From an uncultured Armatimonadia bacterium (GTDB lineage: Bacteria; Armatimonadota; Zipacnadia; UBA1398; CAZMGT01), in the NCBI GenBank assembly GCA_964565895.1, contig CAZMGT010000015.1:93-64092 (forward strand): a stretch of 64,000 nucleotides of DNA, read 5' to 3'. Made by a program: the position numbers and the translations under genes. Below, piece after piece: positions 13,753-62,547 of this stretch (position 1 is its first letter; every line of letters begins with the position of its first letter). Under the pieces are notes generated by a model. That model ran no database searches. It was not told the DNA's origin and saw nothing but the letters and a program-made list of their open reading frames with translations.

Positions 13753-13927
13753 AAGCCGCTCCCTCCCGGCAAACCTCAGCGGCGCAAGTTTCGCTTCGCG
13801 CGCAAGCAAAACCTGCCGCGGCGCATCCCATCGCCTTCGCGGGGCGCCCGCCTGGGGCGCGGCTGGGCCCGAGGCGAACGCTCCGCAAAAGCATCGCGCA
13901 GCCCCCGCCGCTGTGGGCGGTTTTCGT

Positions 13928-21580: not shown

Positions 21581-21622
21581 ACCGCTTCCCTCGCTTGTCG
21601 TTCGCTTGCCCTGCTCTGGGGG

Positions 21623-22933: not shown

Positions 22934-23027
22934 TGCAGCTCACCCTTTGCTCTGGTTTGCACGAGCGCGTGATCATTCGCCGCGCTGCGCAGCGCCTATC
23001 TTCCCCGCGCGCACGCCACAACCCCCG

Positions 23028-41168: not shown

Positions 41169-41295
41169 GGGCGCTTCACTCCTTTCCGCCTCAGCGGGCG
41201 TCTTCGCCGCGCGTTCCACGCACGCCTGCCTGGGCCGCGCAGCGCTCGCCGCGCTTGGCGCCCCCGCCTGCTGCGGGAAAAGGGGAGAGACGGCA

Positions 41296-42381
41296 ATGCG
41301 CGTGTTGAGGCAATTTTGCGCCGCGCTTTTGTTTTGCCAACTGCTCTGCTGGGGCGCGCGGGCGGAGCCTCCTACCCCTCCCGGACAGCCTCGTTCCGGG
41401 CCAGGGGGCGCGGAGTATAAGCACGCCGCCGTGCGCAAGGCCGCGTTTGGTGTGGGCGGCACGCGCTTTTGGCTGTTCGAGCCTGCCGAGCCTACGCCGC
41501 GCTCGGCGCCGGTTGTCGCGCTGTTTCACGGCTGGTCAGGCGTCAACCCGATGTACTACGGTGCGTGGATCGAGCATCTCGCCCGCCGGGGAAACATCGT
41601 TATCTGGCCGCGCTACCAGGCGACGGCGCTGGACATTCGCAACATAACGCAAAACTCCGTTAATGCGCTGCGCGCGGCGCTCGCCCGGCTGCAGGATGGC
41701 GCGCACGTCGCCCCAGAGCTAGACAAGTTCGCCCTTGTCGGGCACTCCCTGGGCGGAACAATGGCCGCCAACGTGGCCGCGCGCGCCCAGCGCGCGGGAC
41801 TGCCCAAGCCGCGCGCGCTAATGCTCGTCCAGCCGGGCGACACAAAAGGCTCGGTCACTGCGCAGCGGCTGGGCCTCGATGTTCCCAGCGTGCTCGAGGA
41901 CTACTCCACGATCCCCAGCGACGTTTTAATGCTCATCGTCGTTGGCGAAGAAGACCGGCTTGCCGGAAACCAGGGCGCACTGTTTTTTCATGAGACGCCC
42001 CAAGTGCCTTTGCAAAACAAGGACTACATAATCCTACGCAGCGACCGCCATGGCTCGCCCCCGCTTGTCGCGCACCACTTTTGCCCCTGCGCGCTAGACG
42101 AACGCTACGACAACGGCGAGCGCCCCCTGTGGCGCGCGCGGGGCCGCCGCGCGCTGTTTAGCGAGGCGCTCATGCGCAAGCTGCTCGGCGTGGACGCCCT
42201 GGACTACTTCGGCACGTGGAAGTTGCTCGATGGGCTCACCGACGCCGCGTTTTACGGCAAAAACCGCGACTACGCCCTGGGCAACACGCAAAAGCAGCGC
42301 TTTATGGGCGTGTGGAGCGACGGCGTCCCCGTGCGCGAGCTGGTAGTAACCGACAACCCGCCGGCCGTTGCCCGGCCCTAG
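41296..42381 (+). CDS. Secreted alpha/beta hydrolase (chlorophyllase/cutinase-like)
   Basis: Signal peptide; LFHGW, nucleophile elbow GHSLGG, VGEED, AHH. Confidence 0.85.
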   Translation: MRVLRQFCAALLFCQLLCWGARAEPPTPPGQPRSGPGGAEYKHAAVRKAAFGVGGTRFWLFEPAEPTPRSAPVVALFHGWSGVNPMYYGAWIEHLARRGNIVIWPRYQATALDIRNITQNSVNALRAALARLQDGAHVAPELDKFALVGHSLGGTMAANVAARAQRAGLPKPRALMLVQPGDTKGSVTAQRLGLDVPSVLEDYSTIPSDVLMLIVVGEEDRLAGNQGALFFHETPQVPLQNKDYIILRSDRHGSPPLVAHHFCPCALDERYDNGERPLWRARGRRALFSEALMRKLLGVDALDYFGTWKLLDGLTDAAFYGKNRDYALGNTQKQRFMGVWSDGVPVRELVVTDNPPAVARP

Positions 42382-42475
42382 CCGCCGCGCGCAGGCAGGC
42401 GCCTCGTGGGCGAGGGGCGAAAAACCTCTTGCCCGACGAAGAACGGGCCAGCGCGCGGAGAAGGAGTTGAGGAAG

Positions 42476-43225
42476 ATGAGCAAACTGCTGCCGCTTTTGT
42501 CCCTGGCCGTGTTTTGCCTCGGCCTGTGCCCTGCGCCGGCGAGCGCCGCGGGCGAGCAAGGCAAGCTTAGGGTGGTCGTAATCACTGGCGGCCACGGGTT
42601 TAACCGCAACGAGTTTTTCAAGATCTTCCAAGGCCACGACGACATCGAATATCGCGAAGTCGTCCAACCCAAGGCAAACGATCTTTACACACCCGAAGCG
42701 CGCAAGACATACGACGTTATCGTGATGTACGACATGTGGCAGAAAATTACCGCGGAGCAGAAGAAAAACCTCATCGCGCGGCTTAACGAGGGGCTGCCCC
42801 TTGTTGTCCTCCACCACGCCATCGCCTCATATCAGGACTGGCCGGAGTATGAGAAGATCATTGGCGCGCGCTATTACCTCCAGCCGACGATGGTCCGTGG
42901 AAAGCTGCACCCGCGCTCGACATATCAGCACGACGTGCGCTTTACGGTAAAAATCGCCGACCCAAACCATCCCATTACCCGGGGAATGGCCGACTTTGAG
43001 ATCGTTGACGAGACGTATAACCTGTTCGATGTCGCCGACGACGTGCACCCGCTGCTTACCGTAGAACACGAAAAAAGCGGCAAAATCATCGGCTGGACGC
43101 ACCACTACGGCAACTCGCGCATCGTCTACATCCAGCTCGGCCACGGGCCAAGCGCCTTCGGCAACGAGAACTATCGCCGGCTTGTGGCACAGGCGATCCG
43201 CTGGGTTGCGGGAAGGCTGGATTAG
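42476..43225 (+). CDS. Secreted ThuA-like (class I GATase-like) domain protein
   Basis: VITGGHGF, YDVIVMYD, VVLHHA, HPITRGM.DF.IVDETY, YGNSRIVYIQLGH. Confidence 0.88.
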   Translation: MSKLLPLLSLAVFCLGLCPAPASAAGEQGKLRVVVITGGHGFNRNEFFKIFQGHDDIEYREVVQPKANDLYTPEARKTYDVIVMYDMWQKITAEQKKNLIARLNEGLPLVVLHHAIASYQDWPEYEKIIGARYYLQPTMVRGKLHPRSTYQHDVRFTVKIADPNHPITRGMADFEIVDETYNLFDVADDVHPLLTVEHEKSGKIIGWTHHYGNSRIVYIQLGHGPSAFGNENYRRLVAQAIRWVAGRLD

Positions 43226-47961: not shown

Positions 47962-50004
47962 ATGGAAACCGAGGTCGGACGGGGGCAGTCCGGCACAGGT
48001 GAGCTGGGCGAGGAGGCAGCCCGCGGGGCGGCCCGCGCCGAGGCTCCCATGCAGGCCCCGCGCGGGCCGATTACCCTACGCGCCCTGCTCCTCGGCCTGT
48101 GCATGTCCATTATCCTGGGCATCATCACGCCGGCCAACGACATGGCCCTGGGCAATACGTTCATGGCCGGCAACCACTTCCCCCTGGGCGCGTTCTTGGT
48201 CCTCCTGCTCGTGTCCATCCCGGTAAACCGCTTGCTGCGGCTAACGAGGGTAATTAGGCCGTTAAGCGCGGGCGAGGTTATCGTCGTGTGGTGCATGTGC
48301 CTCGCCTCGTCGGGCATCCCGTGCTCGGGGCTGATGCGCCTGCTCGTCCCCGCGCCCGCGGGGCTGGAGTATTACGCCGACGAGCAGAACAAACTCGACG
48401 AGATCGTCCGCCCGCACCTTCCCCCGTGGCTCATCGTCCAGGGCGAGGAGGAGGTGCGCTGGTTCTTCGAGGCCCTGCCCGAGGGCGAGCGCATTCCGTG
48501 GTATGCCTGGCTGCCTTCGATCTGCGGCTATGGAATTTTCGTGCTGATGTTCTATGCGTTAATGGCCTGCCTGGCCTCGCTGTTGCGCAAGCAGTGGGCG
48601 GACCACGAGCGCTTTCCCTTTCCCCTGCTCGAGGTGCCTGTGGAGCTGGCCCGCTCTACAGAGACCCCGCTCGGGATGCCGGAGTGGGTAAGGCACGGGG
48701 GGTTTTGGGCGGTAACCATTTTGCTGCTCGTGCTGCACACGATCCAGGGGCTGCACATGTTCTATCCCAGCCTGCCCAGCGTACCGTTTGCCGTGCCGCT
48801 TCACCGCTACCTAACGGAGCGCCCCTGGCGCTACATGGGCTGGATGGTCGCGCGGACGTATCCCATGATGGTCGGGCTGTCCTATATGACGCGCACGGAG
48901 ATTACCTTTTCCGTGTGGTTTTTCTATCTTGTTCTGCACACGCAGTATATGGTGCGCGGGATGCTCGGCCTGCCCCCGGGAACGCCCATGTTCCGCGGCG
49001 GGCCGACGTTCGCGATTACCCAGCAAAACGGGGCGCATTGGGGGCTGTTGCTTTGGTCGCTGTGGGTCGCGCGGGGCTATATTAGGCGGGTGCTCCGCCA
49101 AGCTTTCGGCCGCGAGCGGACGATCGACGACTCGCAGGAGGCTCTCCCCGTGCGCGTGGCCCTGTTTGGGGCGCTGGCGAGCTTTGTCGGCTGCGTGCTG
49201 TGGTTTGTCGCGGCCGGGGTAAGCGTGCTCATTGCCATTTGGGTTGTGCTTGCGTTTACCGGGGTAATGGTTGTCCTAAGCTGGCTCGTATGCAACGGCG
49301 GGCTAATGATGGTGCAGTGCCGCTGGACGCCGCTCGACCCTGTGGTCGGCGTGCTCGGGACGCGCGTGCTCAGCGTGCGAGACAAGGCCGTGGTGCCGCT
49401 GTTTGAGCAGATTTTCTGCTTCGATCTGCGCGAGGCGATCCTCCCCAGCATACTCAACGGCCTGCGCGCCGCCGATGTCGGCGTCAGCCGCCGCCACACG
49501 CTGGGCGCGATGATGCTCGCCGCCGTCGCTGTCGCCGCCGTAGCCTACTACTTCGCCATTCGCGTGGGCTACGTTTGGGCCGCGGGAACCCTGCCCGAGG
49601 TCCCCACCTACCACTCGCGCAGCGTCTATCCCTACGAGCTGGCTGCCCGCTGGATTACCGAGGGCCAAGAGCCCGCGCTGGACAACCTGCGCAATATCCT
49701 CACCGGCTTCGCCATCGTGTTTGGGCTGCTTTGGCTGCGCAGCCGCCTCCTCTGGTTTCCCCTGCACCCCGCCGGCCTGTGCATGATCTACTCCTATTCC
49801 GGCGAGATGATCTGGTTCTCCATGTTCTTAGGCTGGCTGTTGAAAACGTGCCTGCTGCGCTATGGGGGCTACCGCGCAATGCGCGCCGCGCGGCCCTATT
49901 TTGCGGGAATGATCGTCGGCGACGCGATCGCCGGGCTAATTTGGATTATCGTCGGCTGGTGCATGAAGGACCAGGACATTTTCTACGCCCTGCTCCCGCG
50001 CTAG
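47962..50004 (+). CDS. DUF6785/DUF6784-type polytopic membrane protein (putative transporter)
   Basis: ITLRALLLG, NHFPLGA, QWADHERFPFPL, WFPLHPAG, MFLGWLLK..LLRYGG...RAARPYFAGMIVGD. Confidence 0.75.
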   Translation: METEVGRGQSGTGELGEEAARGAARAEAPMQAPRGPITLRALLLGLCMSIILGIITPANDMALGNTFMAGNHFPLGAFLVLLLVSIPVNRLLRLTRVIRPLSAGEVIVVWCMCLASSGIPCSGLMRLLVPAPAGLEYYADEQNKLDEIVRPHLPPWLIVQGEEEVRWFFEALPEGERIPWYAWLPSICGYGIFVLMFYALMACLASLLRKQWADHERFPFPLLEVPVELARSTETPLGMPEWVRHGGFWAVTILLLVLHTIQGLHMFYPSLPSVPFAVPLHRYLTERPWRYMGWMVARTYPMMVGLSYMTRTEITFSVWFFYLVLHTQYMVRGMLGLPPGTPMFRGGPTFAITQQNGAHWGLLLWSLWVARGYIRRVLRQAFGRERTIDDSQEALPVRVALFGALASFVGCVLWFVAAGVSVLIAIWVVLAFTGVMVVLSWLVCNGGLMMVQCRWTPLDPVVGVLGTRVLSVRDKAVVPLFEQIFCFDLREAILPSILNGLRAADVGVSRRHTLGAMMLAAVAVAAVAYYFAIRVGYVWAAGTLPEVPTYHSRSVYPYELAARWITEGQEPALDNLRNILTGFAIVFGLLWLRSRLLWFPLHPAGLCMIYSYSGEMIWFSMFLGWLLKTCLLRYGGYRAMRAARPYFAGMIVGDAIAGLIWIIVGWCMKDQDIFYALLPR

Positions 50005-50803: not shown

Positions 50804-52519
50804 CTAGCGCGCGATGCGCGGCGAGGGCAGGTTGTTAAACACCTGCTCGAGCGAGATCTCGCCGCTGCGCGCTTTCTCCAGGCCGACCTCCATGAGCGGG
50901 CGGAAGCCCGCGCGCAACGCTGCTCGGCGCAGCTCCTCCTCCGGCGCGCCCTGGCCCACAAGCTGGCGCAGCTCGCCGCCCAGCGAGAGCGACTCGGCCA
51001 CCGCGGTGAGCCCAGCCAAACCCCGCCCGCGGCACGTGGGGCATCCCCGCCCGCGGAAAAACGGCCCCTGCACGGGGTGCCCGAGCATGTCCTCGAGCTG
51101 GCCGAGGAGCGTGGGGTCGGGCTCCACCTCCTCGCGACACTGCGGGCAGTTGCGCGCGACCAGCCGCTGGGCCACGACAATGTTCACCGCCGCGGCAAGC
51201 AGGTAGTGCTGCGCACCGAGATCGGCCAGCCGCGCTAGGCTCAAAATGGCGTCCTGCGCGTGGACCGTGGTGAGCACGAGATGCCCGGTAAGCCCCGCGC
51301 GAATGGCGATCTCGCACGTCTCCTGGTCGCGCACCTCGCCGACCATAATTACGTCGGGGTTTTGGCGCAAAATGGCGCGCAGCCCCTCGGCGAACGTCAG
51401 CCCCACCGACTCGTGGACCTCGATCTGCGTTACTCCGTCTAGGATAAGCTCCACGGGGTCCTCGATGGTCATGGTGTTTTTCGTTACGTCCTGCAGCGCC
51501 TTGAGGCAGGCATAAAGCGTGGTCGTCTTTCCCGAGCCCGTGGGGCCGGCGACGATGATTACCCCCTGCTGCTGGTTCAGCGCCCAGTTCAGCCGCCGCA
51601 TGGTGTCCTCGTCGAACCCGACCTGCTGCAGGGCCAGCGTCGAACGGCCGGAGTCGAGGACGCGAATCGCCGCCTTTTCGCCGAAGATCGAGGGCAAAGT
51701 GGCCAGACGCAGATCAATCGCCCGGCCGGCAAACCGCGCCTTAATGTGCCCGTCTTGGGGCACGGAGCGGTTGGTAATGTCCATTCCCGCGAGGACCTTT
51801 AGGTAGGAGATTACCGGCTTTTTCGCGCTCCCCGGCATGCGCAGCACGTTGCGCAACTGCCCGCGCACGCGAAAGCGCACTTGGACGTGGTCCGGGCCGG
51901 GCTCGAAGTGAATGTCGCTCGCCCCCGTCTCTATTGCGTCGGCGATAATATCGTTGACGGTATCCACCACTTGGACTTCCTGTGCTCTGTCCGGGGTCTC
52001 TTCTTCCTCGGAGATAAACTCGATGCGCGCCTTGGCCCGCGCCGGCGCGGGAGCGGCGGAGGCTTCCGTGGTGGGTTCGGAGATAGCATATTTCTGCGCG
52101 AGGACGGAGAGGATCTCGCTCGGCGTGGCGACCACGGGCTGAAGCTGCATGCCCACGTGCTGCCGCGCCTCGTCCAGCGCCTGCAGGTTCGTGGGGTCGG
52201 CCATGGCCAGGTAGGCCGTGCGCTGGTCGGTCGCCCCCGGGGGGCGAAACGGAGCGACGAGGTAGCGCTGGCAGAAGCCGGGGGGCATGCGCGCGAGCAG
52301 CTCGCCGTCCCAGCACAGGCCGCAGTCGCGGGCCAAAGCCAGCCCCATGCGCTCGGCAAGCACCCGCGCCAGGTCGTTGGGGTCGATCAGCCCCAGGTCA
52401 ACGAGCACCGCGCCCAACCGTCGCCCGGGCGCCGAGCGCTGGACGTTTAGCGCATGGCGCAGCGACTCCTCCGTTATCAGCCCCATGCGCACGAGCATTT
52501 CTCCAATTCGTTCGGCCAT
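50804..52519 (-). CDS. PilB/GspE/MshE family secretion ATPase with N-terminal MshEN c-di-GMP-binding motif
   Basis: RIGEMLVRMGLI...LRHALNVQ...RLGAVLVDLGLI; Walker A GPTGSGKTT, EDPVE, LRQNPDVIMVGEVRD, TGHLVLTTVH, CPQC...CPTC. Confidence 0.93.
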   Translation of the reverse strand: MAERIGEMLVRMGLITEESLRHALNVQRSAPGRRLGAVLVDLGLIDPNDLARVLAERMGLALARDCGLCWDGELLARMPPGFCQRYLVAPFRPPGATDQRTAYLAMADPTNLQALDEARQHVGMQLQPVVATPSEILSVLAQKYAISEPTTEASAAPAPARAKARIEFISEEEETPDRAQEVQVVDTVNDIIADAIETGASDIHFEPGPDHVQVRFRVRGQLRNVLRMPGSAKKPVISYLKVLAGMDITNRSVPQDGHIKARFAGRAIDLRLATLPSIFGEKAAIRVLDSGRSTLALQQVGFDEDTMRRLNWALNQQQGVIIVAGPTGSGKTTTLYACLKALQDVTKNTMTIEDPVELILDGVTQIEVHESVGLTFAEGLRAILRQNPDVIMVGEVRDQETCEIAIRAGLTGHLVLTTVHAQDAILSLARLADLGAQHYLLAAAVNIVVAQRLVARNCPQCREEVEPDPTLLGQLEDMLGHPVQGPFFRGRGCPTCRGRGLAGLTAVAESLSLGGELRQLVGQGAPEEELRRAALRAGFRPLMEVGLEKARSGEISLEQVFNNLPSPRIAR

Positions 52520-52548
52520 CGGCAACCACCCTGTCCTCGCCCCCGCCT

Positions 52549-52578
52549 ATTGTACACTATTGTCGCCCGCGGTTGACA
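52549..52578. promoter_or_regulatory. Divergent promoter region: TACAAT (-10, minus strand, for the ATPase) and TTGACA (-35, plus strand)
   Basis: ATTGTA at 52549-52554 and TTGACA at 52573-52578; the partner elements are weak. Confidence 0.35.
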
Positions 52579-52712
52579 GAACGCGCCCCGCGGGGTACGC
52601 AAAATGCGCAGCCCGTGGGCGTCTAACAAAACTGGGCGCTGGCTGCGCAGTGCGCCGCGTTGGCCGGCGGCCTTTAGGGTTTGCACAAAGCGCTTTGCCC
52701 AGGAGGTCGGCT

Positions 52713-55502
52713 GTGCGCAAACGCTGGGAAAAAGCTTTGTGCCTGGCAGCGCTTTGCGCTGGGCTGCTTGCCCTGTGCGCGGGCGCTCGCGCGCAGGAGC
52801 AATATACGTTCGTCGCTCGCCGCGGGACGGGGCCCTATAGCTTCCGTTGCCGCATCGTGGGGCAGTGGGCGCAGGGAAGCGAGGCGCGCCTTGTTTTCGA
52901 CTTTCGCGACGCGGCCAACTTTCGCTACCTCTCCCTAAAGCCCGGCGAGGCAGCGTTTATCGAAGTCGCCGCCGGCGCCTCGCGCACCTTCGCCGGCCCC
53001 GCGGCGGTTGACCTAAACAACGACTTGGCGGTTACCGTGCAGCGCCGCGTGGGGCGCGTAAGGGCGATCGTCGGCGGGCAGGTCATCCTCTCCGCGCAGC
53101 TCGGCGCCCCGCTTGAGGGCCGCGTGGGCTATTTCTGCCGCGGCGCGCAGCTCGAGATAAAAGAACCGCGCGTGCAGCCCGTGGCCGAGGTATATTTCAC
53201 CGACGACTTCGGCCGCGCCGCAGACGACCCGGGGCAGTGGACGATCGTCGCCGGCAAGTGGACAAACACCATGGTCGACGCCCCGCGTGCCCTGCCCGAC
53301 TTTAGCGCCAACCCATTTTCCGTCTGCGCCCAGGGCGCGGACAAAGCCCTCTGTCTTGCGGGAAGCTGGTATTGGGACAGCTACCGCTTCCGCGCCTCCG
53401 TTAACCCGACGAGCGCGCAGGTCGTGGGCATCGCCGGCTACGCGCAAGACGAGCAAAACTACATTCTCTTCCGCTGGCGGCGGGGAAGCTCGAAAATGCG
53501 CCGCGCGAAGCAGCTCGTTCTTGTGCGCAACGGGTTCGAGGAGGTGCTCGCGGAGGCCGACGGCGGGTTCCAGCCCAACCAGTGGTATCGCCTCGAGCTG
53601 CGCTTTGCCGAGGGCTCCGTGCACGCGCTGATCGACCGCTACCCCGTGCTTTCTGCAAAAACTAATGCCTTCGGCCAGGGGCGCGTGGGCTTGTGGCTGA
53701 GGGGCGAGCGGGCGTTTTTCGACGACGTCGCCGTAGTCGGGGCTACGGTAAAGCACGAGCTTGCCGCAAAAATCGCCGAAGGGTTTCAGCATGACTCGGG
53801 CACGGTGGGCGAGGTCTACGGCCCGACGATCCCCTGGCGGCTAAGCCGCGACGGGGCGATCTGGTGGCACCGGGGGATTTTCTTCCACGACGTAGCGGCG
53901 AGCATTCCCCTCAACCCCAAGGCGGGCGACCCGAAGGCGGTTATCGTTCTGGGCAGCGAGGAGCGGCCTGAGGCCGGGCTGGTGGTCCGCTGCCGCTGGC
54001 AGGGGCCGCGCCTGCGCCTGGCGGTTGAGGAAGACGGTGCGCCCCAGGCGCAGTCGGAGGAGTTCGAACCGGCCTCCGGGCAGGATCTCACCGTCAGCTT
54101 CGACGGAAAAAGCCTGTTGCGCGTCGTCACGCAGGGGCGCGAGGTGCTGCGCTATCAGGCCAAGCGCCGCCCGGCGGGCCGCCTGCTCGGAATTATCTCC
54201 GACAACCCCGCCCAGGTGTGGGGGAGCGCTGTGGAGTCCGACCACCAGTTGGAATATCTGTTCTCCGAGGCCCCCACGGACTTCTATAGCACAAAGGGCC
54301 AGTGGCACATTACCACGCGCTGGCCCTGCGAGCCCCGCTGGACGTTTTTCGGCGGCGAAAACGACGAGAACCCCACGGTATGGACGAAGCACATCTATCG
54401 CGGCGACTTTGCCCTGGAGTTTTTCATGAACATCGGCATGGACCTCCCGCGCAGCCCGGGCTATTCCCACCCCAGCGATGTCAACGTAACGGTCTGCGGC
54501 GACGGCCGCTCCCTGGGCAGCGGCTACAGCTTTATCATCGCCGGTTGGAACAACACAAAAACGGCGCTTTTGCGCCGCAGCGAGGTTGTTGCCCAAACGC
54601 GCGAGTTTCTCTTCGAAAACCCCATTAGCGCAAACCCCAAGTTTCACCGGCACTGGTTTAGAGTGCGCGTGGAAAAGGCCGGCCCCACAGTCAGCCTCAC
54701 CGTGGACGACAAGCCCCTGCTGCGCTACACCGATCCCGACCCGTTGCCCGACGGGCGCATTGCCCTGTGGACCTACCACAACAAGCTGATGATCGCCCGG
54801 GGCTACATTTGGTTTGCCGAGGAGCAGCCGGCGGCGCTTCCCGACCCTCCGTCGTGGCCCAAGCGCCAAGAGTTGGCCCGTGGGCGCCGCCAGCCGAACG
54901 TTTTGTTTAACGATTTCGAAAACGACGCCGGCGAGTGGCACACTACGGTGGGCGTCTCCTATAGGCTCCCCACCCTGCTTGAGCTGGACAACTCCACGGC
55001 GGCCGGCGGAAAGCGCAGCCTGAAGATCACTAACATGACCGAGGGCGGGCCGTTTACCGTGTTGGCCATCGATGCCCCGATTAGGCTGCGCGACTACCCG
55101 GTAATCAGCTTCGACTACCGCGTGCCCCCGGAGGTAAAGGTTAACCTCTATTTGCTCCTCGGCGGGGTGTGGCACGCCGTGGAGTTTACCGCGCGCCAGC
55201 CGCAAGGGACGCCGGTTAAGGTCATCGGCGCGTTTGCCGACGTGCGCGCCGACGGCCGTTGGCACCACACCAGTTTCGACCTGCTCACGGCGCTGCGCCG
55301 ACTGTATCCCGGGCGCGAGTATTTCGAGGCGCAATACTTGGCGTTCGCCAGCCCCCAGGAGGACTACGTGCGCTGTGGGATCGGGGGCAACCCTCTGGGG
55401 GCGAGCTATTGGATCGACAACTTCCGCCTGGGGCAGGTGCACTTTGCCTGCCAGCCGCTGCCCGATGTTCCCTCGCTTTTTGCCGCGCGCAGGGTAAGCT
55501 AG
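52713..55502 (+). CDS. Large secreted multi-domain ConA/LamG/DUF1080-like protein with C-terminal CBM-like domain (paralog A)
   Basis: AGGAGG 6 nt before GTG 52713; signal peptide; repeated beta-sandwich motifs (NQWYRLELRF, HWFRVRVEK, GRVGLW, GRIALW); C-terminus NDFEND...GKRSLKITN...WHHTSFDL...WIDNFRLG. Confidence 0.8.
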   Translation: MRKRWEKALCLAALCAGLLALCAGARAQEQYTFVARRGTGPYSFRCRIVGQWAQGSEARLVFDFRDAANFRYLSLKPGEAAFIEVAAGASRTFAGPAAVDLNNDLAVTVQRRVGRVRAIVGGQVILSAQLGAPLEGRVGYFCRGAQLEIKEPRVQPVAEVYFTDDFGRAADDPGQWTIVAGKWTNTMVDAPRALPDFSANPFSVCAQGADKALCLAGSWYWDSYRFRASVNPTSAQVVGIAGYAQDEQNYILFRWRRGSSKMRRAKQLVLVRNGFEEVLAEADGGFQPNQWYRLELRFAEGSVHALIDRYPVLSAKTNAFGQGRVGLWLRGERAFFDDVAVVGATVKHELAAKIAEGFQHDSGTVGEVYGPTIPWRLSRDGAIWWHRGIFFHDVAASIPLNPKAGDPKAVIVLGSEERPEAGLVVRCRWQGPRLRLAVEEDGAPQAQSEEFEPASGQDLTVSFDGKSLLRVVTQGREVLRYQAKRRPAGRLLGIISDNPAQVWGSAVESDHQLEYLFSEAPTDFYSTKGQWHITTRWPCEPRWTFFGGENDENPTVWTKHIYRGDFALEFFMNIGMDLPRSPGYSHPSDVNVTVCGDGRSLGSGYSFIIAGWNNTKTALLRRSEVVAQTREFLFENPISANPKFHRHWFRVRVEKAGPTVSLTVDDKPLLRYTDPDPLPDGRIALWTYHNKLMIARGYIWFAEEQPAALPDPPSWPKRQELARGRRQPNVLFNDFENDAGEWHTTVGVSYRLPTLLELDNSTAAGGKRSLKITNMTEGGPFTVLAIDAPIRLRDYPVISFDYRVPPEVKVNLYLLLGGVWHAVEFTARQPQGTPVKVIGAFADVRADGRWHHTSFDLLTALRRLYPGREYFEAQYLAFASPQEDYVRCGIGGNPLGASYWIDNFRLGQVHFACQPLPDVPSLFAARRVS

Positions 55503-55694
55503 CGTCGCCGCTTTAGCGGCCAGGCCCTTGCCCGCGACTCCAGGGCAAAGCACAGAACATGGGCAAAATCCCTCGCGTCTATAGGGGCGAGGCGCGCGCT
55601 TTCAGCTCTTGCGCAGGCGTGCCCGCTCGTCGCGATAGGCGGCGCGGCGAGCGGGCCGCCCGGCGCATTTTCTGTGGAGGAGGGTGCGGCCGCA

Positions 55695-58457
55695 ATGCGG
55701 CGGTTTGCGGTGCTCGCTGGGTTGTGCTTTGCCGCGGTCTGCGCAGCGTGGGCCCAGGTCCCCAGCGCAAAGCTGGGCTATACCTTTGTCCCCCGCAGGG
55801 GAAGCCTGCCCTATACCATCGTCTGCCGGGCGGCAAGCCAGTGGAGGCCGGGCAACGAGCTGCGCCTTGCCCTGGACTATGCCTCGCCCGACGACCTTTA
55901 TCTCCTGTCCATCTCCCGAGAGAGCGCGGTGTTGCGGCGCATAGAGCGGGGCGAAGAGCGCGAGCTTGCCCGCGCGGCACTGCCCGGCCTGCGCGGAGAG
56001 GAAGAGATTTTCGTGCAGCGCCGGCCAGGGCGGATCGCGGTGATCGTCGGCGGGGAGGTCGTGCTGCGCGCCTCAGCGCCTGGCTCGCTGGAGGGCCGCG
56101 TGGGCTGGGCCGCGCACGGGGTGCAAGTGCACACGCTGCGCGTGCAGCCGGTGGCCGAGGTCTACTTTAGCGACGACTTCGCCCGCCCCCGCGGCGACCC
56201 CGGACAGTGGGCCGTGGCCCGCGGGTCATGGACGAACACCGTGGTTAACGCCCCCCGGGCAAACCCCAACTTTAGCGCAAACCCGTTTTCCGTCTGCGCC
56301 AGCGGCACCCAAGGCGCGCTGAGCATTGCCGGAAGCCCATATTGGGACAACTACCGCTTCCGCGCCTCGGTGCGCCCCACGGACGCGCAGTCGGTGGGCA
56401 TTTTGGGCTATGTGCAAGATGCGGCGAACTATATCACCCTGCGCTGGCGCGCGGGCGGCAGAGCGGCGCGCGGGGCGAAGCAGCTCGTGCTTGTCCGCCA
56501 CGGCAACGAGCGCGTTTTGGCCCAGGCCGACGGCGGGTTTGTCCCCGGGCAGTGGTATCGCTTGGAGCTACGCTTTGCCCCAGGCGCGGTTGAGGGGTGG
56601 ATCGATCGCGAGCGCGTGCTCGTTGCTAGCACCGATGCCTTCGGCCAGGGCAAAATCGGCTTGTGGGCGCAGGGCCGCGAGGTGTTCTTCGACGATGTCC
56701 TGGCAACGAGCGGCGCGGAGACCCTCGAGCCGCTAGACTGCGTCCCCCGTACCCTGCGCGAGGACCGGGGAACCGTCGGCGAAGTATACAGCTCAGCGAT
56801 TGCCTGGCGCACGAGCGACGACGGGGCAATTATTTGGCACAGGGGCGTATTTTTTCACGACGTGGCCATGCGCGTGCCGTTAGACCCCGATCATGGGGGG
56901 CCGCACGCGGTAATCGTCCGCGCGCCCCAGGGCTCGCCAAAGTCCGGCTACGTTGTGCGCTGCGCGTGGCAGGGCAAAGAACTTGAGCTGGCGCTAGAGC
57001 GCGACGGGGCGGTGCTCTGCCGCAGCAAGCGACGCCTTCGCCCGGAGCCGGGGCAGGAGCTTAGCGTGCGGTTTCGCGATGGGGCAATTGCCGTGGCGAG
57101 CTTGGGCGAGGAGCTTCTACGCTACGAGGTCGCCGGCGAGCCGCCGGGCCGCAGCGTCGGCGTGGTCACGTCTACGCCGGAGCTTGCCTGGGGAACCTTG
57201 GTCAGCTCCGACCATCAGTTGGAATATACGTTTGCCGAAGCGCCCACGGACTTTTTTGTCAGCAAAGGCCGCTGGGGGATAACCACGCGCTGGCAGTGCG
57301 AGCCAGAGTGGACGTTCTTCGGCGGCGACAGCGACGAAAACCCCACCGTGCTCACCAAACACGCCTATCGGGGGGACGTCGTCGCCGAGTTCTTTATGAG
57401 CCTGGCCATGCAAGCGGGCGTGCCCATCGGCTACCCTCACGCGAGCGACCTGAACATTAGCGCGTGCGTCGCCGGCCTTAACCCAGGCACCGGCTACAGC
57501 TTTATCGTCGCCGGTTGGAAGAACACGAAAACGGCGATTTTACGCCGCGAGCGCGTCGTCGCCCAAACGGACGATTTCCTGTTTGTCGAACCCACTACAC
57601 GCAACACCAATTTTCACCGGCACTGGTTCCGCGTGCGCGTGGAGAAGGTCGGGCGGCGCGTGTCGCTCGCCGTGGACGACCAGCCGCTGTTGCACTTTGA
57701 GGATCCCCAGCCGCTAGAAGGCGGGCGCATTGCCCTGTGGAGCTTCCGCAACTGGCTCTGCGTGGCGCGCGGGTATATTTGGTTTGCCGAGGAGGAGCCG
57801 GCCCCCTTGCCGGAGCTCCCCCGCGTACAGCGGCTGGAGCTTCCCCATGCGGAGCGCCGCGGGGAGACCCTCTTTTGTGACTTCGAGCGCGACGCCGGCG
57901 AATGGCACGCGGAGATCGAGGGCTATCCCTTGCCCACCATCCTCGCCCTTGACGAGACGACAGCGGCCAGCGGAAAGCGCAGCTTAAAGATAACCAACGC
58001 CACCGTGGGCGGGCCGTTTGCCGCGTATTGCATTGCAAAGCCCCTGCGCCTGCAGCGCTATCCCGTGGTCAGTTTCGACTATCGCCTGCCGCCCGAGGTT
58101 AAGGTCAACTTTTACTTGCTGGTTAACGGCGCGTGGCACGTTGTGCGCTTGTCGGCGGAGCAGCCGGAGGAGTCCGGGGTTAACGTTTTGGGCGAATTCC
58201 CCGGCGTCGTCGCCGACGGCACGTGGCGGCACACGAGTTTTAACCTGCTTTCCGCGCTGAAAAAGCTCTATCCCGAGCACGAGTACTTCGATGCCCAGCA
58301 AATTGCCTTCGCCAGCCCGCAGCTCGACTACGTGCGCTGCGGCATCGGGGGCAACCCCCTCGGCGCGAGCTTTTGGATCGATAACTTCCGCCTGGGGCCC
58401 GCCGCAAACACCAAGCCCAGGGCCCAGGCGTCGGGCAACGAACGGACGGAGCGATGA
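55695..58457 (+). CDS. Large secreted multi-domain ConA/LamG/DUF1080-like protein (paralog B)
   Basis: Collinear with paralog A: VQPVAEVYFSDDF, FSANPFSVCA, NFHRHWFRVRVEK, DYVRCGIGGNPLGASFWIDNFRLG. Confidence 0.82.
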   Translation: MRRFAVLAGLCFAAVCAAWAQVPSAKLGYTFVPRRGSLPYTIVCRAASQWRPGNELRLALDYASPDDLYLLSISRESAVLRRIERGEERELARAALPGLRGEEEIFVQRRPGRIAVIVGGEVVLRASAPGSLEGRVGWAAHGVQVHTLRVQPVAEVYFSDDFARPRGDPGQWAVARGSWTNTVVNAPRANPNFSANPFSVCASGTQGALSIAGSPYWDNYRFRASVRPTDAQSVGILGYVQDAANYITLRWRAGGRAARGAKQLVLVRHGNERVLAQADGGFVPGQWYRLELRFAPGAVEGWIDRERVLVASTDAFGQGKIGLWAQGREVFFDDVLATSGAETLEPLDCVPRTLREDRGTVGEVYSSAIAWRTSDDGAIIWHRGVFFHDVAMRVPLDPDHGGPHAVIVRAPQGSPKSGYVVRCAWQGKELELALERDGAVLCRSKRRLRPEPGQELSVRFRDGAIAVASLGEELLRYEVAGEPPGRSVGVVTSTPELAWGTLVSSDHQLEYTFAEAPTDFFVSKGRWGITTRWQCEPEWTFFGGDSDENPTVLTKHAYRGDVVAEFFMSLAMQAGVPIGYPHASDLNISACVAGLNPGTGYSFIVAGWKNTKTAILRRERVVAQTDDFLFVEPTTRNTNFHRHWFRVRVEKVGRRVSLAVDDQPLLHFEDPQPLEGGRIALWSFRNWLCVARGYIWFAEEEPAPLPELPRVQRLELPHAERRGETLFCDFERDAGEWHAEIEGYPLPTILALDETTAASGKRSLKITNATVGGPFAAYCIAKPLRLQRYPVVSFDYRLPPEVKVNFYLLVNGAWHVVRLSAEQPEESGVNVLGEFPGVVADGTWRHTSFNLLSALKKLYPEHEYFDAQQIAFASPQLDYVRCGIGGNPLGASFWIDNFRLGPAANTKPRAQASGNERTER

Positions 58458-59521
58458 CTAGAGGCGCGATAGTCATGCTCTTGCTCGCGGCTTTCCCCGC
58501 GGGTGTTTTCGCCCAGCCCCCGGCGGTTGGCGCGCCGAAGGTGGGCGTCGTCGTAGACATCGGCGCGGGCCGTATTTTGCTTTCCGACGGGACGATCGCC
58601 AACATCGCCCCGCAGGCGGTGGTCGTTACGGCGGAGGGGGAGAAAAAGGCGCTGCGCGACGTCCTCCCCGGGCAATTGGTCGAGGCCCACTGCGTGGATG
58701 AGCTAACGGTGGTTAAGCTCGTCCTCCTTCCCGCGCTGCCCAAAACGTTTCCCATGAGCAAATTCGACCCGCCGCAGGGCAAGATTGTGCGCTGCACCTG
58801 GCAGCACGAGGGCAAACAGTATAAGAACAGCTTTCGCACGGCCTACGCGGTGATGCCCGTGGCCACATGCTTGGGCATTCGCGCCACGGTGTGCTATGAG
58901 CCGAAAGACCCCGCCCGCAAGAGCGCGATCTTTAGGGTCGTTGGCTACGACGACCAGCCGGAGCGCGTGGTTTGGGAGCGCGAGGTGCGCGCGGGCGAAG
59001 CTGTGGAGCTGCGCTGCTCGTTCTACGGCCTAAAGTGGGTGGCGCTGACCTGCCTGCTCCCGGAGGGGGCGCAGGCCGACGATGCCGAGTGCGTGTGGGC
59101 CGACCCGGAGCTGGTCCTTAGGGTTTACCGCGCCCTCCCCGTGCCCGAGCTGTTCGCCAGCGAGCTGGCGCGGCGCGTGGGCCAAGCGATAAGGGAGGCG
59201 GGCGCGGAGCCCGTGGCCATCGCTCGGCCCCAGGTGCTTGGGCTTAGCCCCGAGGTCGGGCGCGAGCTGCTGGAAAAACTCTTGCCCGCGCTCAAAAGCG
59301 GCTGTGCCGTGGCCGCAACGCTGGAGCAAGAGGGGAGCGCCCCGCCCCGGGGCGCGCTCTATGAGGAGGCACGCAAAGCGGGGGCGGAGGCGTTGCTTGT
59401 CCTCCGCGTGCGCTATGACCCACCTGGTTTTGCCGTCGTCGCTTCGCTTTACGGCGTAGACAGCGCCGAACAGCTAGCGAGTTTTGAGCTAAACACGTTC
59501 ACGCCGCTCGTCTCGCGCTAG
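58454..59521 (+). CDS. Secreted hypothetical protein (DUF5666-like, NPCBM/CBM51-like and FlgO/TolB-N-like segments)
   Basis: ATGA coupling; signal peptide; AIFRVVG...VWEREVRAGEAVELRC...VWADPELV; C-terminus AEALLVLRVR...VVASLYGVDSAEQLASF. Confidence 0.6.
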   Translation: MTRGAIVMLLLAAFPAGVFAQPPAVGAPKVGVVVDIGAGRILLSDGTIANIAPQAVVVTAEGEKKALRDVLPGQLVEAHCVDELTVVKLVLLPALPKTFPMSKFDPPQGKIVRCTWQHEGKQYKNSFRTAYAVMPVATCLGIRATVCYEPKDPARKSAIFRVVGYDDQPERVVWEREVRAGEAVELRCSFYGLKWVALTCLLPEGAQADDAECVWADPELVLRVYRALPVPELFASELARRVGQAIREAGAEPVAIARPQVLGLSPEVGRELLEKLLPALKSGCAVAATLEQEGSAPPRGALYEEARKAGAEALLVLRVRYDPPGFAVVASLYGVDSAEQLASFELNTFTPLVSR

Positions 59522-59599
59522 GCGCCCGCTGGCGAAAACCGACCGCCGCCGGCACACCCCGCAGGGCAGGCGCGCCAAGCGGCCGAACAGCAGAAGGCA

Positions 59600-61366
59600 A
59601 TGGGCCTTGAGGAGCAGATACGCCGCCACTGGTATGTCTCGCGGCTGGATGGCGCGCGCATACCCTACCTCGTATTCGTACCGCGCAGCTACCGCGGCGC
59701 GCCCGTGCCCGCCGTCTACTCGCTCCATGGCTATGGCCGGGACGAATGGGGCGGCGTGCGCGAGCACCTGCTCGAGCTGTGCGAGCGATATGGCTGGCTG
59801 CTTGTGTCGACCGCAGGGCGCGGGTGGACGTTTTACGACGGCCCGGGCGAGCAGGACTTCCTCGAGGTTTGGGAGCGCGTGGCCCAGCGCTATGCCATAG
59901 ACTTTTCCCGCATATACCTCGTGGGACACTCCATGGGCGGGACGGGGACGCTGCGCTTGGCCACGCGTTTTCCAGACCGCTTCGCCGCCGCCGTTGCCCT
60001 TTGCCCGTGGAGCGACTGGCGCCTGTGGTATCGCCGGTGGTACGCCTCCGCGGAGCACCCACGGGCGGTCCCCTGGTGGCGCAGGGTGCTGCTCGAGCGC
60101 GCATCGCCGCTGTTCTATGCGGAGAACCTGCTTCACGTTCCCCTGTACCTTTTGCACGGCGTTCGCGATGACGTTGTGAGCGTAAAACACTCTCGTCGGC
60201 TTTATCGGCGCCTGCGCGAGCTGCGCTACGAGGTGGTCTATAAGGAGTACGTGCGCAGCGGCCACGGGCGGTTTGCGGGACGCCTTGCCGCGGCGTTTCG
60301 CTGGCTTGCCGGCCAAACGCGCCCTCGGCACTGGCTCGGCGGAGCGCAACCTCTGGCGCGCACCGAGAAAAGGGAAAAGACGCGGCCGAAGGCGCCCTCT
60401 CGCATTGTTCTCCGCGTGGGCGCTCTGCGCCACGCCCGCGCCTACTGGCTGAGCGTGGAGCAGCTCGACGACCCAACAACGCCCGCGCGCGTGCAAACGG
60501 AGATCGCCCCCGAGACGTGCCAGGGCCCCGCCCGAATCGCCCTGCGTTGCGCGGGAGCCCGGCGGTTGGTTGTTGATTTTGGCGCAGCCCCGCTCCGCCC
60601 CGGGGAGCAGGTTGAAGTAGCGCTTGGCGGAGCCCCTGTTTTCCAAGGCAGGGCCCGGGGAACGCTCGCCCTGGAGCGCGACGAGAGGGGCCGCTGGGCG
60701 GCAAACCCGCCCCCAAGCGCTGCTTTGTGCAAGGCGCCAGGGCTCGAGGGACCCTGGGGCGACGCCCTGTGCGACAGCTTCCTTGTGGTCTTCGGCGACG
60801 ACCCGCGCGAGCGCGAGCTCGCCGAACAATTCGCCTTGGCCTGGGGCCGCTGGACGGTTGGCCTGCGCGAGGACGGCGCGCCCCGCGCCCAAGCGCGAAT
60901 CAAACACGCCGCGGCGGTAACTCGCGCAGAGGTCGCGCAGCACAACCTCGTCCTTTTCGGCCGGCCGCGCGACAACGCGCTTTTGCGCACAGTGCTCGAC
61001 GAGCTGCCCGTGGCCATTAGCAACGACGGGATCACGCTCGCCGGCGAGAGGTTTCGCGGGCGACACTTTGGCCTGCGGCTGATATATCCCAACCCGCTTA
61101 ACCCGCGGCGCTACGTGGCGCTTTCGGTGGGGCGGCTGCCCCTGCGCACAAAGGATTTCGAGTGCCTCCCCTGGCTTGTGCCCGATTTCGCGGTGTTCGA
61201 CGAACGGATACAATGTAGCCGGACCACGCACATGGAGTGGGAGCTTTTCGACGCTGGAGAGTGGCCGGAAGGCGCCGAGCCGCCGCAGGTGCACCTCCCC
61301 GACTGCCTGGTGTGCGCGGGCTTTTTCGACTCGTTCTGGCGGCTGGGAAAGGTGAGCGAGAGGTGA
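59600..61366 (+). CDS. Alpha/beta hydrolase (esterase / S9-like) with C-terminal extension, no obvious signal peptide
   Basis: YLVFVPRSY, SLHGYG, GHSMGG, LHGVRDDVV, SGHG (Ser-Asp-His triad). Confidence 0.85.
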   Translation: MGLEEQIRRHWYVSRLDGARIPYLVFVPRSYRGAPVPAVYSLHGYGRDEWGGVREHLLELCERYGWLLVSTAGRGWTFYDGPGEQDFLEVWERVAQRYAIDFSRIYLVGHSMGGTGTLRLATRFPDRFAAAVALCPWSDWRLWYRRWYASAEHPRAVPWWRRVLLERASPLFYAENLLHVPLYLLHGVRDDVVSVKHSRRLYRRLRELRYEVVYKEYVRSGHGRFAGRLAAAFRWLAGQTRPRHWLGGAQPLARTEKREKTRPKAPSRIVLRVGALRHARAYWLSVEQLDDPTTPARVQTEIAPETCQGPARIALRCAGARRLVVDFGAAPLRPGEQVEVALGGAPVFQGRARGTLALERDERGRWAANPPPSAALCKAPGLEGPWGDALCDSFLVVFGDDPRERELAEQFALAWGRWTVGLREDGAPRAQARIKHAAAVTRAEVAQHNLVLFGRPRDNALLRTVLDELPVAISNDGITLAGERFRGRHFGLRLIYPNPLNPRRYVALSVGRLPLRTKDFECLPWLVPDFAVFDERIQCSRTTHMEWELFDAGEWPEGAEPPQVHLPDCLVCAGFFDSFWRLGKVSER

Positions 61367-62547
61367 GGAAGGGAGCGACAAGTGCCATCCTCGCGCTTTT
61401 GCTGCTAGCGGCCCCGATTGCCTCACAACGCGCGAGCAGCTTCGCTGGCCGCCTACGGCCCACCGCTGCGCCAGGGGGCGCGGTGCGCGTGGCCGCTGCG
61501 GCACGCCCCGTGCGCCCCTTGCCCTGGTGGGACCGCCGCTGGCACTACCGCCTCACGCTGCGCGTAGGCGCTGGGCCGCGCTGGCGTGTGGACTGCCCCA
61601 TTGAGGCGCGCGTTGACCTCCAGCGCTACCTCCGCCGCCCGCTAGACGAGGCCTCAGTGCGCGTGGTGTTTCGCCGGCGGCTTGTTCCCGCGCAATATGA
61701 CGTGCGAACGGGGACGCTGGTGTTTGTCGCCCGCGGCGAAATTCGCCCGGGGACGGCGCGGACGTACGAGGTCTACTTCGACGAACGCCGGCGAACGCCA
61801 AAGCCCAAGCACACCTTCCGCGGAGCGCAGGCGCGCCAAGCTCCGGGCGGTGCGGTATGGCTGGAGAACGAGCGATTGCGTTTGCTGCTCTCGCCCGAGG
61901 GCGGCCGCGCCGCGCGCTGGGAGGTTCTCGCGCTCGGCGAGAGGGACATCGCGCGGTGGGCCGAGCGCGAGCCGCGCGGGTTTTTCTACAACCCCCTGCT
62001 TTATAACAAGCGAGCAACGCTCGCCCCGCTGCTTGTGGGGCCTGTCGCCGTGCGCTACCGCTGTAGCTTCCCCCAAGGCCCGAGCTATACCATTACCCTT
62101 TATTCCGGAATGAGCTGGGCCGAGGTGGTGTGGGACACGCCGCTGGACAGCTTTTGGTGTTACGATTCCCTAGGCGGCGACAAGGGAGCCGCGTGGCAGA
62201 CGGCTTGCTCGGCAACGGCGCAGCGCGAGGCGCTCGAACAAGCGCTTTATTGCCGCGGCGCGCGCTGGGTGGCAAAGCACAGGGCCGATGGCCTGGCCCT
62301 GGGCCTCGTCGTTCCCGAGGTAGACTGCGCCATGGGCGTGGAGCTGCGCGGAGAACGCAGCGGGGTAGGCATTTCCCGCTCCACTCCGGCGGCGCACTTT
62401 GTCGTCGTCGGCGACGTTCTGGGCAGGTTCGACGCGGCGTTTTGGGAAACGCTGCGCCGCACGCTTGACCATACCCTGCCCCCTGTGGTTGACATTGGGC
62501 CGCTGGAGAGGCTCAACGCCGCGGGGAAAATTACCGCCACGGGCTGA
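61363..62547 (+). CDS. Secreted hypothetical protein with DUF2341-like N-terminal domain and beta-supersandwich-like C-terminal domain
   Basis: GTGA coupling; signal peptide; WWDRRWHYRLTLRV...YEVYFD; WLENERLRLLLSPEGGR...GPVAVRY. Confidence 0.6.
   Translation: MRKGATSAILALLLLAAPIASQRASSFAGRLRPTAAPGGAVRVAAAARPVRPLPWWDRRWHYRLTLRVGAGPRWRVDCPIEARVDLQRYLRRPLDEASVRVVFRRRLVPAQYDVRTGTLVFVARGEIRPGTARTYEVYFDERRRTPKPKHTFRGAQARQAPGGAVWLENERLRLLLSPEGGRAARWEVLALGERDIARWAEREPRGFFYNPLLYNKRATLAPLLVGPVAVRYRCSFPQGPSYTITLYSGMSWAEVVWDTPLDSFWCYDSLGGDKGAAWQTACSATAQREALEQALYCRGARWVAKHRADGLALGLVVPEVDCAMGVELRGERSGVGISRSTPAAHFVVVGDVLGRFDAAFWETLRRTLDHTLPPVVDIGPLERLNAAGKITATG

Follow-up and report, generated by a model that had tools for sequence, protein, structure and literature searches.

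Two large co-directional genes, here called A and B, lie in tandem on the forward strand of a 64,000-nucleotide stretch of DNA (the window; contig CAZMGT010000015.1) from an uncultured member of the Armatimonadota. Together they fill positions 52713-58457, and each encodes a full-length protein with a signal peptide, in agreement with the first-pass annotation of this DNA, which had described a pair of tandem secreted paralogues. Paralogue A (52713..55502, +; 929 amino acids) starts with a GTG codon located 7 nucleotides downstream of the Shine-Dalgarno (SD) sequence AGGAGG. Paralogue B (55695..58457, +; 920 amino acids) starts with an ATG codon preceded by GGAGGAGG and has its own SD; an alternative GTG start at 55674 would yield a protein of 927 residues, longer by seven. 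The N-termini of both proteins have the basic, hydrophobic and AxA segments of a Sec signal peptide (52713-52781 in A, 55695-55757 in B), and a lipobox is absent from both.

The two proteins are clearly related. Their BLASTP alignment extends over 901 amino acids at 57% identity and 68% positives, with 11 gaps (E = 0). All four sequence blocks originally quoted as common to the pair (VQPVAEVYF.DDF, APRA.P.FSANPFSVCA, FHRHWFRVRVEK and DYVRCGIGGNPLGAS.WIDNFRLG) are found in A and in B, and the mature proteins also share six cysteines at equivalent positions (C44, C201, C423, C535, C591 and C882 in the numbering of B). C535, C591 and C882 are invariant in all nine close-clade sequences, and C535, which lies in the fourth domain, is kept in 157 of 157 sequences of this domain from the wider family. 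By the Nei-Gojobori method, non-synonymous divergence (dN) is 0.39 and synonymous divergence (dS) is 0.94, which is near saturation, giving an overall dN/dS of approximately 0.4. Both frames are intact, and both genes are under purifying selection.

An AlphaFold2 model of B was built from 26 family sequences and is predicted with a mean local distance difference test score (pLDDT) of 87.4 and a template modelling score (pTM) of 0.84. It is all-beta and contains five beta-sandwich domains, D1 (residues 28-153), D2 (154-341), D3 (373-501), D4 (502-704) and D5 (722-903), with a helical linker (342-372) between D2 and D3. This bears out the initial proposal of four lectin-like modules and a C-terminal module resembling a carbohydrate-binding module (CBM). 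The pTM of 0.84 for B indicates that the domains are predicted to pack together into one body and are not strung out like beads. In the DNA, the domains of B are located at 55776-56153 (D1), 56154-56717 (D2), 56718-56810 (linker), 56811-57197 (D3), 57198-57806 (D4) and 57858-58403 (D5). The limits in A were taken over from the B model via the A/B alignment, and are 52800-53183 (D1), 53184-53747 (D2), 53841-54227 (D3), 54228-54836 (D4) and 54891-55448 (D5). Identity between the paralogues is 65% in each of D2, D4 and D5, 48% in D3, 41% in D1 and 39% in the linker. The first-pass annotation had placed the divergence in the segments between shared blocks and in the third domain; this holds for the linker and for D3, but among the domains it is D1 that diverges most.

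Structural comparison points to lectins and CBMs. The best Foldseek matches of the B model are neurexin and laminin G (LG) domains, galectins, BT3469 and CBM66, with the lowest E-value against the PDB for neurexin LNS1-6 (1e-14), followed by BT3469 (PDB 4jqt; 7e-11). The neurexin and laminin LG arrays (E 1e-14 to 1e-10) resemble A and B as strings of concanavalin A (ConA)-like sandwiches, but the likeness is one of fold repetition only (TM 0.10-0.12, 7-9% identity), and these arrays are eukaryotic, bind proteins and have a different domain arrangement. BT3469 of Bacteroides thetaiotaomicron combines tandem DUF1080-type sandwiches in one secreted protein (E 6.8e-11; target-normalised TM-score, TMt, 0.32); however, it has two domains instead of five, shows no match at the sequence level and is labelled as a 'putative glycosyl hydrolase'. 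Among viral structures, Foldseek found nothing beyond generic multi-LamG phage adhesins (TM ~0.15). No glycoside hydrolase (GH) or other catalytic domain was detected through Pfam, NCBIfam or Foldseek, and the earlier reading of the sequence had likewise recognised no GH domain. Neither A nor B had a match in NCBIfam, and GH16, polysaccharide lyase family 7 (PL7) or similar catalytic folds are absent among the top 50 Foldseek matches of the B model.

Individual domains can be characterised further by profile comparison, which identifies D2 as CBM66/DUF1080-like, D4 as DUF6250-like and D5 as CBM-like. Pfam DUF1080 (PF06439) scores 24.7 bits on D2 of B and 20.6 bits on D2 of A, both below the gathering threshold of 26.8, and matches 16 of the 26 family members at E<0.01 (best 5.9e-9). 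The sole relative of the D2 profile among solved sequences is CBM66 (4azz; E 5.5e-6), the alignment spanning the C-terminal 85 residues and hence the C-terminal half of the domain. CBM66 is part of the Bacillus subtilis levanase SacC (PDB 4azz, 4b1l, 4b1m) and belongs to the PF06439 superfamily. D2 shares its beta-jelly-roll and superposes on 4azz and 4b1m with a TMt of 0.81-0.85 and a root-mean-square deviation (rmsd) of 1.9-3.5 Å; in Foldseek, CBM66 is a clean single-domain match to the B model (TMt 0.85 at rmsd 2.2 Å). Identity in D2 is nevertheless only ~13-14%, and whereas CBM66 is carried by a GH32 enzyme and recognises the ends of fructan chains, A and B have no catalytic domain. The CAZy definition of a CBM is a non-catalytic module on a carbohydrate-active enzyme, and no catalytic domain was found in A, in B or in the longer relatives examined. 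For D4, Pfam DUF6250 (PF19763; gathering threshold 26.9) scores 27.2 bits in A and 15.5 bits in B, over the C-terminal half of the model only, and matches 10 of 19 D4 domains at E<1 (best 1.2e-5); a literature search on DUF6250 found nothing relevant. The D4 profile gives weak matches to DUF6250, DUF1080 and DUF1961 among families and nothing meaningful against PDB sequences. Pfam CBM_4_9 (PF02018) scores 13.2 bits on D5 of A (E 0.12; gathering threshold 25.9), and D5 members weakly match the galactose-binding-like CBMs Mann_GBD (Mann_GBD_bact), CBM_4_9 and SGBP_B_XBD; the D5 profile has no match among PDB sequences.

The family to which A and B belong is large and without a name. A word-indexed search recovered 39 relatives, all of them unnamed or 'hypothetical', the few with an organism name being from Armatimonadota or Abditibacteriota. 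This low number was a sensitivity artefact, as shown by an exhaustive search with a hidden Markov model (HMM) profile, which found 9066 clusters (at 50% identity) at E<1e-3 and 1392 at E<1e-30, more than 150 of them matching over essentially the full length. Named members from this search come from Armatimonadota, Abditibacteriaceae (Abditibacteriota) and Planctomycetota. Every named relative is annotated as 'hypothetical protein', and neither A nor B maps onto a characterised family. A scan of GTDB species genomes with the close-clade alignment yielded 15 loci, 14 in Armatimonadota or Abditibacteriota and one in an unclassified metagenome-assembled genome (MAG) labelled 'uncultured bacterium'.

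Domain HMMs applied to the 150 best clusters revealed a common architecture. The core is D1-D2-(DX)-D3-D4, followed by zero, one, two or three copies of D5, where DX is an additional CBM66-like domain present after residue 340 in the longer clade (CBM66 match E 3e-7). The architecture seen in the window, without DX and with a single D5, is found in 14 of these 150 clusters. Longer members carry added PA14, LamG, DUF1080, Y_Y_Y and PQQ-propeller modules, and none of them an enzyme domain. D4 is the most constrained domain of the family. In at least 91% of 157 sequences, it retains F513, G525, W527, R532, C535, W539, W553, K555, D561, G600, Y601, W644, D670, P673, W682 and R692.

Within this family, A and B are each other's closest relatives. 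In a maximum-likelihood tree they are sisters with 100/100 support within the short clade, and no tandem pair of large genes occurs at the ~20 related loci. The duplication that had been proposed at the outset is therefore confirmed, and it is specific to this lineage. Paralogue expansion elsewhere is dispersed and not tandem: the Armatimonadota MAG b3.sp2_bin.12 (JBHIEF01) carries three family copies on separate contigs (loci L011, L012 and L018), with no small-partner genes (see below) within 8 kb.

The two copies have diverged asymmetrically. The branch leading to B is longer than that leading to A (0.54 vs 0.36), and B is consistently less similar to outgroups. In D4 of B, the tryptophan at position 553, which is 96% conserved, is replaced by leucine, and D593 is lost as CGDG changes to CVAG; D4 of A retains both W553 and the CGDG motif. 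The longer branch and the loss of these two conserved residues could be taken to mean that B is a decaying duplicate without function. This is very improbable, however, given an open frame of full length, an SD of its own, an overall dN/dS of ~0.4, a GC content at third codon positions like that of A (0.81 in B, 0.82 in A) and the apparent translational coupling of B to the gene that follows it. Moreover, out of the 102 family columns conserved to at least 80%, B keeps 90, compared with 93 in A. The pattern fits sub- or neo-functionalisation of B and not decay. With the ancestral D4 signature in A and a faster-diverged B, it suggests a division of labour, possibly within a heteromer, and sub-functionalisation of the pair is the form that we infer. 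The asymmetry could reveal which domain carries specificity.

Some further features of the pair can be recorded here. The C-terminal tail of A (55449-55499), which reads ...CQPLPDVPSLFAARRVS, is proline-rich with a short hydrophobic stretch and RR, loosely like a truncated PEP-CTERM; this resemblance is probably coincidental, because B and the relatives have no such tail. Two antisense open reading frames overlie gene A, at 53841-55553 (-; 570 amino acids) and 53013-53792 (-; 259 amino acids). They were rejected as genes, being mirror-frame artefacts of high-GC DNA, and their 'homologous' counterparts lie opposite the family gene in most loci. A scan for promoters and terminators over 52300-59800 found sites no more numerous than in shuffled sequences. 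The sequencing runs that hold this sequence are DNA metagenomes, with no RNA among them; the most complete match is a hydrothermal vent sample with 93% of the words.

B is followed immediately by the gene for a small secreted partner protein of 355 amino acids (P0042; 58454..59521, +), described here from its sequence, an AlphaFold2 model and Foldseek. The partner ATG overlaps the stop codon of B (ATGA), and an alternative start lies at 58475. A and B are predicted to be co-transcribed with the partner, and B to be translationally coupled to it. The partner N-terminus, MTRGAIVMLLLAAFPAGVFAQPP, is a signal peptide with no cysteine or lipobox, and most of the paralogues likewise have no canonical lipobox. 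Its model (pLDDT 89.1) comprises three domains: a small N-terminal beta-barrel, a jelly roll resembling CBM51/NPCBM and a C-terminal alpha/beta domain resembling LpoB and FlgO. The jelly roll superposes on CBM51 structures with a TMt of 0.59-0.63 (7jrl, E 6e-8; 2vmg, TMt 0.60), and the C-terminal domain on the C-domain of LpoB (4q6l, 4q6z) with a TMt of 0.58-0.59; the whole model matches a Vibrio LPHT flagellar ring entry with a TMt of 0.22. P0042 itself has no Pfam match, whereas paralogues of the partner pass the Pfam FlgO threshold (25.6 bits for the one at locus L001, gathering threshold 22.6). LpoB is an activator of the penicillin-binding protein (PBP) PBP1B, and domains of the LpoB/FlgO type dock or oligomerise proteins at the interface between periplasm and outer membrane. 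The partner thus shares the fold of the LpoB C-domain at its C-terminus and that of CBM51 in its middle, but differs from LpoB and FlgO by the missing lipobox cysteine and by its extra N-terminal barrel and CBM-like domain; no link of the partner to PBP or flagellar genes was seen.

The partner, which the first-pass annotation had not included, belongs to a recurrent gene cassette. Loci of the closest clade have only one large gene, and linked to it are the genes of S1, S2 and S3, three secreted paralogues of ~345-360 amino acids; the window partner is the S3 orthologue, with 30-33% identity to the S3 proteins of L001, L002 and L003. The order is co-directional S1-S2-S3-large gene at five loci (L002, L003, L009, L010 and L020), the S genes are divergent from the large gene at two (L001 and L008), and the window presents a third arrangement, A-B-S3. 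Overall, small-partner linkage was found at L001, L002, L003, L008, L009, L010, L013 and L020 in addition to the window. Because the linkage survives three gene arrangements, gene order argues for the large gene and the small partners being a functional unit. Two large genes with one small partner occur only in the window among the ~20 loci seen, and no S1- or S2-type gene lies elsewhere in the 64 kb.

Downstream of the partner is a gene for a 588-amino-acid Peptidase_S9/abhydrolase protein (59600-61366, +), the C-terminal ~340 amino acids of which match no family, and a 28%-identical esterase likewise follows the S3 gene at L001. The next gene (61363-62547, +) encodes a secreted protein of 394 amino acids with no Pfam match, and its GTG start overlaps the stop of the preceding gene (GTGA).

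Since A and B appear to be co-transcribed with a small protein of envelope type, their most likely place is in an envelope glycan-binding complex. In full, we infer, at about an even chance, that A, B and the partner constitute a secreted, non-catalytic, multivalent glycan-binding complex associated with the cell envelope. A and B would be exported by the Sec pathway and bind glycan multivalently through their compact five-sandwich bodies. The CBM51-like domain of the partner would contribute a further sugar-binding site, and docking or oligomerisation would fall to its LpoB/FlgO-like domain. The polysaccharide bound could be an environmental one or the cell's own envelope glycan. The variation of D5 between zero and three copies, as is seen with CBMs, is consistent with this proposal. 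Several observations weigh against it. At roughly half of the related loci, no small-partner gene lies within 8 kb of the large gene, and the other neighbours of family genes are not conserved. No lipobox or sorting signal was found that would anchor the complex. The charged and aromatic D4 residues R532, K555, D561, Y601, D670 and R692 are kept in at least 91% of 157 diverse sequences; such conservation exceeds that of a typical CBM and could mark an active site or a metal site. A fixed core with variable C-terminal CBM-like repeats is found in carbohydrate-active enzymes also.

These last points lead to the possibility that the core is itself an enzyme on a ConA-like scaffold, in which D4 or D2 would carry a new lyase, hydratase or hydrolase site (for instance for a 3-keto-glycoside or uronate polymer), with the small partner and D5 as its targeting modules. 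The near-invariant polar residues of D4, the core with zero to three CBM-like repeats and the presence in the window of pectate-lyase-like, GH140-like, ThuA and galacturonate-kinase-like genes all favour it. The sub-threshold DUF1080 scores of A and B, the non-catalytic nature of the one PDB sequence relative of D2 (CBM66), the want of any solved sequence relative of D4 and the lack of GH16, PL7 or similar folds among the leading structural matches speak against it, and we consider it unlikely. A specific version, that the proteins are multi-domain 3-keto-sugar hydratases, had been offered in the first-pass annotation and finds no support. Enzymes of this type, BT2/AL2, are a 3-keto-alpha-glucoside 1,2-lyase and a 3-keto-2-hydroxy-glucal hydratase, with E103, N134, E164, Q166, Y190, K245, Q273 and H275 in the active-site channel of BT2 (bioRxiv 10.1101/2024.03.25.586180). 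A and B share with them the jelly-roll fold and, through weak PF06439 scores below the gathering threshold, a Pfam superfamily. The conserved columns of D2 and D4 contain no E/N/E/Q/Y/K series matching that of BT2, although an alignment this weak does not permit proof at the level of single residues. In place of Q-x-H the last strands have VGLW and IALW, and the active-site set including Q273-x-H275 is unrecognisable. Oxidoreductase genes are not specifically linked either. Gfo/Idh/MocA genes lie within 8 kb at five of ~20 family loci; two unrelated ones in the window (~13100-13900 and ~21600-22960 (-)), neither adjacent to A/B, served as a control for background density, and as the adjacency equals this background it was rejected as support for a 3-keto-sugar pathway. 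An operon with a Gfo/Idh/MocA 3-dehydrogenase and a sugar-phosphate-isomerase-like lyase, which marks the enzymatic DUF1080 class, was not found, nor did the flanks of solitary family members contain a recurrent enzyme partner (their genes are YfhO-like, DUF6288, HEAT-repeat, enolase-like, CCA/polyA-polymerase-like and peroxiredoxin).

A different emphasis would be that A and B are structural, serving as envelope, surface-lattice or adhesion proteins whose beta-sandwiches make protein-protein contacts and whose LpoB/FlgO-like partners anchor them. The compact, rigid body predicted at a pTM of 0.84, the partner domain with its match to the Vibrio flagellar ring entry, the three paralogous partners in relatives, which suggest a hetero-oligomeric base, and the multi-LamG phage adhesins as the best viral matches are all compatible with such a role. 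Yet there are no repeats, coiled coils, S-layer homology (SLH) domains, PEP-CTERM or other anchoring signals, the relatives of the domains are chiefly sugar binders, and copy number and context vary among genomes, something unusual for a core part of the envelope; a structural role is thus rather improbable. More doubtful still is a role of A and B as cargo or accessory of a type II secretion system (T2SS) or type IV pilus, such as a secreted adhesin controlled by cyclic di-GMP (c-di-GMP). This idea stems from the gene divergent from A across a 187-bp gap, which encodes a GspE/PilB-type ATPase with an MshEN domain (50804..52525, -; Pfam T2SSE 1.9e-116, MshEN 1.3e-15) and might be co-regulated with the pair. 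An MshEN-T2SSE ATPase is also divergent from a 27%-identical long-clade relative at L007 (5869-7740) and L023 (3879-5744), where a full PilT/T2SSF/prepilin-peptidase/pseudopilin cluster begins with it. These two loci are syntenic orthologues, however, and so only two independent lineages show the pairing, the other ~18 loci have no such ATPase, and in the window the ATPase is an orphan, without further pilus or T2SS genes close by. So rare a pairing is unlikely to be due to chance, and yet it is confined to two lineages, and a functional link is possible. Neither the structural nor the secretion proposal excludes a glycan-binding complex; the three are compatible.

A more far-reaching version of the glycan-binding complex, speculative and in our view unlikely, is that S1-S2-S3 and the large protein form an undescribed envelope machine of Armatimonadota. 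An LpoB/FlgO-like hetero-oligomeric base or ring at the outer membrane would display a rigid five-domain lectin, with the highly conserved site of D4 capturing or processing a specific polysaccharide and perhaps with coupling to the c-di-GMP-sensing MshEN secretion ATPase. If so, the version in the window would be one remodelled to two large proteins and one small protein.

To our knowledge, hardly any Armatimonadota or Abditibacteriota have been cultured, and the biology of their envelope and of polysaccharide capture is essentially uncharted. The family described here is a large and previously undescribed one with a newly recognised partner cassette, although of a familiar kind, that of secreted multi-ConA-like/CBM proteins. 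Now that its domain grammar and conserved partner cassette are defined and a confident structural model is available, it offers concrete targets. Should D4 prove catalytic, it would represent a new activity on the ConA-like fold; if it is not, the family adds another multi-CBM lectin, useful but unsurprising.

The window as a whole is rich in genes of plant-cell-wall or pectin type, including a pectate-lyase-like beta-helix, a GH140-like apiosidase, a galacturonate-kinase-like gene, a DUF6785/DUF6784 membrane protein, ThuA and the S9/abhydrolase. These say little on the general role of the family, because they are not conserved with it. ThuA proteins function in trehalose utilisation and are associated with 3-keto-sugars. 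The ThuA-like gene of the window (42368-43225, +) lies 10 kb from A/B, and others accompany family members at L012 (14171-15079) and L018 (1004-1918), both from one MAG; this proximity was not shown to exceed background. The DUF6785/DUF6784 gene encodes a polytopic membrane protein (47962-50004, +) and has counterparts at L015 (472-2439) and L016 (3844-5979), so that one lies within ~6 kb of a family member at three of ~20 loci. As this family is uncommon, its proximity may reflect a weak functional link. Finally, a DUF5010/GH99-like/WbsX-like protein is encoded 11 kb upstream of A/B (39585-41462, -), and a shorter gene of the same type lies downstream of a long-clade family member at L024 (12037-12984).

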